From IMG/VR virus record IMGVR_UViG_2728369182_000007: DNA of 48,325 bases; one strand, 5' to 3'. Under the pieces are notes generated by a model. The model was not told where the DNA came from. It saw only the letters and a program-made list of their open reading frames with translations, and searched no databases. The DNA comes from a virus. Taxonomy: Duplodnaviria > Heunggongvirae > Uroviricota > Caudoviricetes. Position numbers and translations under genes: made by a program. Shown one piece after another: positions 28,098-28,407 of this stretch; within the stretch, counting starts at the first letter, position 1, and each line of letters begins with the position of its first letter.

Positions 28098-28172
28098 TGG
28101 AGCGGGCAGCGGGAATCGAACCCGCATCATCAGCTTGGAAGGCTGAGGTAATAGCCATTATACGATGCCCGC
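28098..28172 (-). tRNA. tRNA-Gly (anticodon UCC)
   Basis: Manual cloverleaf: acceptor GCGGGCA/TGCCCGC, anticodon loop CUUCCAA, T-loop TTCGATT, encoded CCA; resembles E. coli glyT as recalled. Confidence 0.7.
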
Positions 28173-28175
28173 ATA

Positions 28176-28251
28176 TGGTGCCGACTACCGGAATCGAACT
28201 GGTGACCTACTGATTACAAGTCAGTTGCTCTACCTACTGAGCTAAGTCGGC
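28176..28251 (-). tRNA. tRNA-Thr (anticodon UGU)
   Basis: Manual cloverleaf: anticodon stem ACTGA/TCAGT, loop CUUGUAA, T-loop TTCGATT, CCA; one T-stem mismatch. Confidence 0.65.
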
Positions 28252-28253
28252 AC

Positions 28254-28330
28254 TGGACCGCCACCGGGGACTCGAACCTCGCACTCTCAACTTAAAGGGT
28301 TGACGCTCTTTCCTGATGAGCTAGTGGCGG
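28254..28330 (-). tRNA. tRNA-like gene with anticodon loop CCUUUAA (apparent anticodon UUU, C33)
   Basis: Manual fold: acceptor CCGCCAC/GTGGCGG, D-arm, anticodon stem TCAAC/GTTGA, T-loop TTCGAGT, CCA; non-canonical C at position 33. Confidence 0.5.
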
Positions 28331-28331
28331 T

Positions 28332-28407
28332 TGGTGGCCCTTGCTGGATTTGAACCAGCGACCTGGCGATTATGAGTCGCTCGCTCTCACCACTGAGCTA
28401 AAGGGCC
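28332..28407 (-). tRNA. ileZ: tRNA-Ile2 (anticodon CAU, ileX/ileZ-like)
   Basis: Manual fold; sequence GGCCCTTTAGCTCAGTGGTGAGAGCGAGCGACTCATAATCGCCAGGTCGCTGGTTCAAATCCAGCAAGGGCCACCA closely resembles E. coli ileX as recalled. Confidence 0.75.

Follow-up and report, generated by a model that had tools for sequence, protein, structure and literature searches.

A Lys-type tRNA gene with C33 and argN descent in a late-operon tRNA cassette of Escherichia coli prophages

The tRNA cassette and its gene content

The 48,325-nucleotide stretch of DNA analyzed here (IMG/VR virus record IMGVR_UViG_2728369182_000007, class Caudoviricetes; hereafter "the window") contains six tRNA genes, all of them located on the minus strand and detected by ARAGORN (Table 1). 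Four of these genes form a cassette in the first of two late regions, and the second gene of that cassette, which has a UUU anticodon but a C at position 33 (hereafter the Lys-type gene), is the main subject of this report. The initial annotation of positions 28098-28407 had listed tRNA-Ile2(CAU), an odd tRNA with the anticodon loop CCUUUAA, tRNA-Thr(UGU), and tRNA-Gly(UCC), packed with spacers of 1 to 3 nt. The four identities are upheld by ARAGORN, Rfam, and RefSeq alike. The close packing is seen in the ARAGORN coordinates as well, with 3 nt between the Gly and Thr genes, 2 nt between the Thr and Lys-type genes, and 1 nt between the Lys-type and Ile2 genes. The Rfam tRNA model (RF00005) matches all six tRNAs of the window with E-values from 1e-6 to 1e-14, and the Lys-type gene scores lower (45.1 bits) than the other five (65 to 74 bits; gathering score, 29). 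On identical E. coli loci, RefSeq and the Prokaryotic Genome Annotation Pipeline (PGAP) label the four genes tRNA-Ile, tRNA-Lys, tRNA-Thr, and tRNA-Gly. The programs agree on one fold, and none of the four genes is flagged by PGAP as a pseudogene.

Table 1. Features of the two tRNA-bearing late regions of the window
Feature	Position	Strand	Evidence and remarks
Class II holin gene, start of lysis cassette	27590-27805	-	Annotation of the identical locus L001, mapped to the window; downstream of the tRNAs
Terminator-like hairpin	27875-27890	-	Consensus scan; between the cassette and the holin gene
tRNA-Gly(UCC)	28098-28172	-	ARAGORN; Rfam 64.9 bits; exact copy of host glyT
tRNA-Thr(UGU)	28176-28251	-	ARAGORN; Rfam 73.8 bits; exact copy of host thrU
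Lys-type (UUU) tRNA, argN family	28254-28330	-	ARAGORN; Rfam 45.1 bits; PGAP tRNA-Lys
tRNA-Ile2(CAU), ileZ-like	28332-28407	-	ARAGORN; Rfam 72.5 bits; PGAP tRNA-Ile; first cassette gene
239-amino-acid open reading frame	28530-29249	-	phrog_1521, unknown function; between Q and the tRNAs
tR'-like intrinsic terminator	29389-29408	-	Consensus scan; 7-bp stem, 5 GC pairs, T tract; just downstream of Q
Q-type antitermination protein gene, prophage A	29489-30310	-	Open reading frame; identical locus annotated "antitermination protein"; upstream of the cassette
tRNA-Arg(UCU), argO-like	41160-41234	-	ARAGORN, Rfam, PGAP; 3' end CTA, no encoded CCA
Decayed argN-type gene	41248-41327	-	Alignment; ends kept, anticodon arm scrambled; uncalled by tools
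Second tRNA-Ile2(CAU), late region 2	41335-41410	-	ARAGORN, Rfam, PGAP
tR'-like terminator	41454-41473	-	Consensus scan; downstream of the second Q
Q-type antitermination gene, late region 2	41554-42375	-	Open reading frame and annotation

The last two genes of the cassette match host genes exactly: the Thr gene is identical to thrU of E. coli K-12 at 76 of 76 positions and the Gly gene to K-12 glyT at 75 of 75. Both are copies derived from the host and not phage variants. We also considered that they might be nuclease-resistant phage variants, a possibility that is ruled out by this identity. While K-12 thrU and glyT are separated by tyrU and a 116-nt spacer (locus L126, positions 389-748), only 3 nt separate the two copies in the prophage. 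Host flanking sequence is nearly absent around the copies (28098-28251), with tyrU and the 116-nt spacer precisely missing, and the route of capture could have been either deletion or gene-by-gene assembly.

To place the cassette within its family, the second slot was surveyed in two IMG/VR scans, one with the shared T arm as its anchor and the other with the 3' half of Ile2, which yielded 224 copies. Among 206 Ile2-anchored IMG/VR loci, and with the caveat that the choice of anchors biases the proportions, Ile2 is followed by Lys-type, Thr, and Gly genes in 89, by argN(UCG) and argO(UCU) in 66, by Arg(UCU) alone, with slot 2 decayed or absent, in 27, and by Lys-type and Arg(UCU) genes in 10; the remainder have rarer forms. 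These mixed architectures support the modular exchange of tRNA genes that had been proposed from the window alone.

Structure and descent of the Lys-type gene

The Lys-type tRNA aligns over its full length to RF00005 (model positions 1-71, E = 4e-9) as a standard cloverleaf, in which the only non-pair, A51.C63 in the T stem, is common to argN of phages that carry Shiga toxin genes (Stx phages). The tRNA has the expected core bases (U8, A14, G18-G19, T-loop UUCGA, G53-C61, and a purine at position 37), C1-G72, U73, and an encoded CCA. Its 7-nt anticodon loop reads C32 C33 U34 U35 U36 A37 A38 in the Infernal alignment, and ARAGORN gives the same fold, so that the C33 loop reported earlier is borne out: the UUU anticodon is present, and U33, the base of the U-turn, is absent. 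Because Infernal and ARAGORN agree on one register, an alternative fold that restores U33 is ruled out. The thermodynamic minimum free energy fold is not a cloverleaf for either this tRNA or canonical argN and is, therefore, uninformative. The low covariance-model score was considered as a sign of a pseudogene and rejected as evidence particular to this gene, because argN of phage 2851 itself scores 43.0 bits and an allele of the Lys type that has U33 scores 53.2 bits.

The closest known relative of the cassette is the ileZ-argN-argO cluster of Stx phages, which phage 933W reportedly carries. In phage 2851, the gene order is Q, tRNA-Ile, tRNA-Arg(CGA), tRNA-Arg(AGA), and stx2, and the cassette of the window sits in the same slot. 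Ile2(CAU) is the first gene in both. The homology of the second genes, suspected from the start, is borne out by alignment: the Lys-type gene and phage 2851 argN are identical at 64 of 77 positions and share a T arm, as compared to 46 of 79 identical positions for host lysT. The third gene of the Stx phages, Arg-UCU, is retained in late region 2 of the window. The differences are concentrated in the later slots of region 1. Slot 2 combines UCG with U33 in the Stx phage and UUU with C33 in the window, where three stem pairs are re-compensated as well; slot 3 holds argO in the Stx phage, whereas slots 3 and 4 of the window hold the exact thrU and glyT copies. The anticodon arms reflect these relationships: UCAAC, CCUUUAA, and GUUGA (5' strand, loop, and 3' strand) with U73 in the Lys-type gene; UCAGC, CUUCGAA, and GCUGG with U73 in argN of phage 2851; and GUUGA, CUUUUAA, and UCAAU with A73 in host lysT.

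Retention of pairing during this divergence was examined in an alignment of 46 distinct slot-2 alleles of intact length, with the 3' partners slid by 1 to 3 columns as a control. Standard pairs occupy 96.4% of the cells, as compared to 28 to 54% in the slid controls. Three pairs differ on both sides between argN and the Lys type (7-66, UA/CG; 27-43, CG/UA; 30-40, GC/AU), while the slid controls give 0 or 1 such two-sided pairs. The UG intermediates of these type-separating pairs are still extant, and a fourth two-sided pair, 4-69, varies within the Lys type (CG, UG, and UA). The compensated events are few, but they occur at three different helical positions and all of them preserve pairing. 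The Lys-type gene thus belongs to the argN lineage, with an anticodon changed from UCG to UUU (C35U and G36U). Given that a randomly mutated argN pseudogene would not show three compensated stem pairs, the gene arose as a working tRNA. Since arginyl-tRNA synthetase (ArgRS) and lysyl-tRNA synthetase (LysRS) both read mainly the anticodon, the anticodon change should have switched charging as well. Discriminator A73 is a minor identity element of LysRS; host lysT has it, and the Lys-type tRNA, with U73, does not.

Variation, decay, and late-operon context of the second slot

A Lys-type copy is present in 798 of 5,426 complete E. coli genomes (~15%), and the commonest C33 allele occurs as an exact match in 279 of them; of the species-representative genomes, only those of E. 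coli and Shigella flexneri have the Lys-type arm. The anticodon loop of 118 Lys-type copies is CCTTTAA in 114, TCTTTAA in 2, ACTTTAA in 1, and CTTTTAT in 1, so that C33 is present in 117 of 118. The single exception (locus L130) is a rare sister allele that has U33 together with U38, a T stem free of mismatches, and U4-A69 as a compensated pair. Exact matches to this U33/U38 allele exist in 12 complete genomes of E. coli, and PGAP labels them tRNA-Lys. Four tandem copies of an STnc100-like sequence lie downstream of the tRNAs of L130 (2265-3380). The host-like loop CUUUUAA had no exact match on the commonest C33 backbone in the 5,426 complete genomes (other backbones were not checked individually), and the single match in a scan of Joint Genome Institute metagenomes belongs to an unrelated tRNA within a large array. 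The C33 and U38 alleles are each one step away from CUUUUAA, in different directions, and argN has U33 and A38; by parsimony, we infer that the common ancestor of the two alleles had the loop that is identical to that of the host.

Among the genes of the cassette, the Lys-type gene is the most variable, 4 to 6 times more so than its three neighbors. Across 53 IMG/VR loci with the Ile2, Lys-type, Thr, and Gly architecture, and with anchor positions masked, nucleotide diversity is 0.0127 in the Lys-type gene, 0.0014 in Ile2, 0.0015 in Thr, and 0.0029 in Gly, which makes it ~4 to 9 times higher than that of cassette neighbors in the same loci. In the 29 loci with homologous flanks, the diversity of the Lys-type gene (0.0114) is similar to that of the 170-nt downstream non-coding flank (0.0142). 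Segregating sites are significantly more frequent in the Lys-type gene (7 of 57) than in the three neighbors (5 of 227; Fisher's test, P = 0.003), and the difference from the flank is not significant (P = 0.44). The Lys-type gene is, thus, under much weaker selection than its neighbors and varies at a rate near that of the non-coding flank. The most mutated allele, in ETEC4071, carries seven changes, U8C and G18A among them, and goes uncalled by PGAP, while its neighbors have one change (Ile2), none (Thr), and two that form a compensated pair (Gly). Stem changes within the Lys type, with ~6 pair-preserving and 4 pair-breaking events, are too few to be informative. For comparison, diversity in 54 argN/argO loci is 0.063 in argN, which is close to the value in argO (0.045) and far lower than that in the spacer (0.156).

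Decay of the second slot has occurred several times independently and takes several forms: a scrambled, 80-nt argN-type allele, which is also the form in late region 2 of the window; alleles with deletions in the anticodon arm; an argN/argO chimera; and an allele in PPompW that has a 1-nt deletion in the D stem, scores below the Rfam gathering threshold, and is not called by PGAP/RefSeq. The chimera, found in three IMG/VR loci, consists of the 5' half of argN and the 3' half of argO joined at their shared anticodon-loop sequence CCTTCTAAGC. Its acceptor strands are unpaired, and it looks like the product of a recombination between adjacent tRNA genes that deleted the interval. In E. coli M15 (locus L234; NZ_CP010213.1, 401-710), the whole cassette is decaying, with extra substitutions in Ile2 and Thr, and both the Lys-type gene and Thr go uncalled by PGAP.

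Late region 2 repeats the order Q, terminator, and tRNAs, and in both regions the cluster lies on the same strand as Q. Its tRNA set differs, as had been noted, and consists of Ile2, an uncallable remnant, and Arg(UCU); RefSeq/PGAP annotates tRNA-Ile and tRNA-Arg. The two Ile2 copies of the window are identical to each other. The 80-nt remnant retains the 5' acceptor strand and D arm as well as the T arm and 3' acceptor strand of the family, but ARAGORN does not call it even at a relaxed threshold (-ps80), and it is absent from the Rfam matches. At least 16 IMG/VR loci have the same scrambled allele. The initial annotation called this remnant a degenerate homologue of the odd tRNA, and a decayed member of the family it is; its diagnostic pair U7/A66, however, identifies it as argN-type rather than as a decayed Lys-type gene. 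The adjacent Arg(UCU) gene ends in CTA (41155-41160), as does the PPompW copy, whereas argO of phage 2851 encodes CCA; the gene also has U4.G69 where phage 2851 argO has U4-A69.

In region 1, the genes that follow the tRNAs are, by the annotation of an identical locus, those of the holin, a YdfR-family protein, lysozyme, and a lysis protein. A Pfam search with the 239-amino-acid open reading frame between Q and the tRNAs gave no match. Because the tRNAs sit beyond a tR'-like terminator, their expression should depend on Q. Two lambdoid late and early regions follow one another in the same orientation, at 26.2 to 36.9 kb and at 37 to 48 kb of the window. The two tRNA-bearing regions are ~1 Mb apart in the complete genomes HM670 and KE51, as opposed to 13 kb in the window, and none of the collection's complete E. 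coli genomes spans >80% of window positions 24000-48325 in one place. On these grounds, the window seems to consist of tandem or nested prophages, or else to result from a rearrangement. Each prophage early region contains one hok/sok-type locus on the minus strand that adjoins a hokD-like gene (32341-32516 and 44408-44579; Rfam sok, 120.5 and 106.7 bits), and a copy of the small RNA STnc100 (132 bits) lies on the minus strand at 40272-40461, between IraM and the region-2 tRNAs. Farther away, a G-like tail-chaperone open reading frame (17564-17950, minus strand) ends in GTT AAA AAA AAG TAG, and a T-like open reading frame (17262-17552) continues in the -1 frame; a programmed -1 frameshift of the G/GT type is likely at A AAA AAG (17567-17575).

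Decoding, competing explanations, and significance

Codon demand was evaluated in 33 late open reading frames of the prophage. ATA makes up 13% of Ile codons, ACA 21% of Thr codons, GGA 18% of Gly codons, and AGA 8% of Arg codons, while AAA accounts for 63% of Lys codons. The corresponding values in K-12 are ~7% for ATA, ~13% for ACA, ~11% for GGA, 2 to 4% for AGA, and ~76% for AAA. Against these approximate host values, codon supply fits the presence of Ile2, Thr, Gly, and Arg(UCU) and fails to fit that of Lys(UUU), and we rejected supply for a rare codon as the reason for the Lys-type gene, because AAA is not enriched. A dependence of lysogeny on tRNA genes (PMC10865867) was considered as well; there are several lys genes in E. 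coli.

The loop itself raises the question of how well such a tRNA could decode. U33 enforces the U-turn that is required for ribosome binding (PMC13276492). C33 blocks the formation of N6-threonylcarbamoyladenosine (t6A) in E. coli and yeast, and the E. coli enzymes TsaBCDE are unable to place t6A37 on a U33C initiator tRNA in vitro (PMC8887486). The motif 36-UAA-38 is a strict, universal determinant of t6A, although for bacteria this is inferred from sequence conservation (PMC13276492). The C33 allele has U36-A37-A38 beside C33, an anti-determinant known from another tRNA, and the U33/U38 sister allele does not have the UAA motif. With an anti-determinant in one allele and the loss of UAA through U38 in the other, both Lys-type alleles are predicted to lack t6A37.

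Taking these observations together, we favor, at about even confidence, a reading in which the late-operon cassette provides decoders of AUA, ACA, and GGA and also carries a marginal, weakly selected, and formerly functional tRNA-Lys of the argN lineage, which is probably a poor decoder and is decaying. The layout of the locus suggests that, during lytic growth, Q-modified RNA polymerase would read through the tR'-type terminator to produce one precursor, which RNase P and 3' trimming would then split into the four closely spaced tRNAs. Ile2, Thr, and Gly tRNAs would add decoders for their three codons. The tRNA-Arg(UCG) of argN would have acquired the UUU anticodon, with a switch of charging from ArgRS to LysRS that is predicted from published identity rules, and the three stem pairs would have been re-compensated on the way to a working tRNA-Lys. 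Transcription and folding of the present allele, with C33, A51.C63, and U73, probably continue, but it would decode poorly, as C33 removes the U-turn base and would act as an anti-determinant of t6A37 for the E. coli enzymes. The Lys-type gene would, then, represent an early stage of the decay series that is seen in this slot elsewhere, including late region 2 of the window. The odd tRNA had initially been described as either decaying or altered in decoding, and it is the former, as relaxed selection and early decay of a once-functional tRNA, that we favor; altered decoding finds no support.

Several observations weigh against this reading. C33 is the dominant state of the Lys type, and the host-like loop CUUUUAA is not found on the Lys-type scaffold anywhere in IMG/VR; the sister allele departs from that loop too, at another position (U38). 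Across the 118 copies, variation in the anticodon arm is limited to three changes at position 32 and a stem singleton; in the 53-locus sample, 0 of the 17 sites of the arm are variable, versus 8 of 40 elsewhere in the gene (P = 0.09). The loop is intact even in ETEC4071, and every common stem polymorphism keeps pairing. The low covariance-model score is a trait of the family, which canonical argN of phage 2851 shares. Moreover, the cassette is present in isolated and viable temperate phages (PhiR47_1, vB_EcoM-606R7, and vB_EcoS-689R5).

A rival explanation is that the tRNA serves in counter-defense. A UUU anticodon placed on the scaffold of an Arg tRNA and combined with a changed base 33 could give a tRNA-Lys that tRNA-Lys nucleases of the host or of prophages do not see and that, in the lytic phase, either replaces cleaved host tRNA-Lys or competes for the nuclease. 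AriB, PrrC, and RloC target the UUU anticodon, and P2 Old does so secondarily. AriB requires U36-A-A-U39-C40|A41 (cleavage at the bar), and U39A alone abolishes cleavage (PMC12409363); the Lys-type tRNA has U36-A-A-G39-U40-U41. P2 Old cleaves CNG motifs that are paired within the anticodon stem, preferring Thr(UGU) and cleaving Lys(UUU) as well, and the lambdoid phage 21 carries a tRNA-Thr(UGU) that rescues against it (PMC12445682); the stem UCAAC/GUUGA has no CNG. PrrC cuts 3' of U33 (PMC2610378), and the base at this junction is exactly the one that is changed. By these rules, AriB and Old, and possibly PrrC, should fail to cleave the Lys-type tRNA. Such a role would also accommodate a Lys(UUU) gene that codon supply does not explain, a conserved anticodon arm, two alleles that each stand one step off a host loop never seen on the scaffold, and a cassette that joins the two prime targets of AriB, Lys(UUU) and Thr(UGU). 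However, the Thr copy is host thrU, with its AriB site and CNG motifs retained, and host thrU gave little protection against Old (PMC12445682). The differences in the scaffold are no more than an inheritance from argN, the Lys-type gene varies about as much as the non-coding flank, and the slot decays repeatedly; with C33 and the loss of t6A, the tRNA should also be a poor replacement decoder. Literature searches returned no paper with the anticodon-arm sequence of the Lys-type tRNA and no data on the action of PrrC on U33C. We consider counter-defense possible but doubtful. Slightly less probable still is its adaptive form, which would have a scaffold-swapped tRNA-Lys(UUU) whose loop moved off CUUUUAA, commonly through C33 and rarely through U38, to yield a decoder or decoy that is invisible to PrrC and RloC (at 33/34), AriB (at 40/41), and P2 Old.

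Two further explanations are less probable. The gene could be kept for its fold alone, with no use in translation, because RNase P cuts at the 5' ends of its cloverleaf and of Thr, across spacers of 1 to 2 nt, would help to release Ile2 and Thr from the polycistronic precursor. The 1- to 3-nt spacers fit such a role, as does the finding that common stem polymorphisms keep pairing while U8 and G18, which are tertiary or identity positions, change in some alleles. Yet, region 2 and at least 27 IMG/VR loci have intact Ile2 and Arg(UCU) beside a scrambled slot 2, so the fold is dispensable, and the conserved sequence of the anticodon loop would be left unexplained, which makes this explanation improbable. 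It is also conceivable that the C33 loop holds the anticodon in an abnormal way and so promotes frameshifting or non-lysine reading, for example, at the A AAA AAG site of the phage's own tail-chaperone genes. Both codons of that site are read by tRNA-Lys(UUU), and pairing with the codon would be weakened by C33 and a probable absence of t6A. A standard UUU triplet, however, sits in a loop of 7 nt for which no other register exists. In addition, host tRNA-Lys already slips at sites of this kind, as in dnaX, and such sites are common in siphophages that have no odd tRNA. We, therefore, regard altered decoding as very improbable.

Phage tRNA cassettes beside stx and lysis genes are textbook knowledge. 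Conversion of an isoacceptor gene through anticodon substitutions has reportedly been seen in anticodon-shift, or remolded, tRNA genes, including mitochondrial ones. The Lys-type gene differs from those examples in its location in a phage cassette and in having undergone two anticodon changes (C35U and G36U) followed by the loss of U33. With the host lysT family it shares the UUU anticodon, U36-A37-A38, and the loop except for position 33 (CCUUUAA versus CUUUUAA), but the scaffold is unrelated, with U73 instead of A73, C1-G72 instead of G1-C72, and another anticodon stem. The initiator tRNA-Met of multicellular eukaryotes is the classic natural tRNA with C33 and has, like the Lys-type tRNA, a loop that reads an ANN codon; unlike it, however, it is an initiator that functions in the P site of eukaryotic ribosomes and has co-evolved with its t6A machinery (PMC8887486). 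Nuclease-resistant phage tRNAs, such as T5 tRNA-Lys(UUU) against AriB of PARIS and the tRNA-Thr(UGU) of T-even phages and phage 21 against P2 Old (PMC11464382, PMC12409363, and PMC12445682), share with the Lys-type tRNA the anticodon of the targeted host tRNA, a stem without the published determinants (in our case, those of AriB and Old), and a phage of the same host; phage 21, the source of the Old-resistant tRNA-Thr, is also lambdoid. Those tRNAs differ from the host in the anticodon stem, with no mention of C33, while the Lys-type gene shows relaxed constraint. The Thr gene beside it, unlike the resistant tRNA-Thr, has the sensitive host sequence.

Hundreds of RefSeq genomes already list the Lys-type gene as tRNA-Lys. 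Its descent from argN with a switch from Arg to Lys, the C33 state in ~15% of complete E. coli genomes, and the verbatim host genes as its partners appear to be undescribed; a literature search on ileZ, argN, and argO found nothing. A functional C33 allele would widen the known reach of tRNA-based counter-defense from large virulent phages (T5 and T4) to the common temperate phages of E. coli pathogens, and it would be a natural test case for translation, nuclease recognition, and t6A recognition without U33. Should the adaptive form of counter-defense hold, this would be the first natural elongator tRNA of a bacterial system that works without U33. If the gene is merely decaying, then "tRNA-Lys" calls in E. 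coli prophages may not correspond to working tRNAs, and the family would offer a natural series of the turnover of a phage tRNA slot, from host capture through anticodon switching and chimeras to decay.

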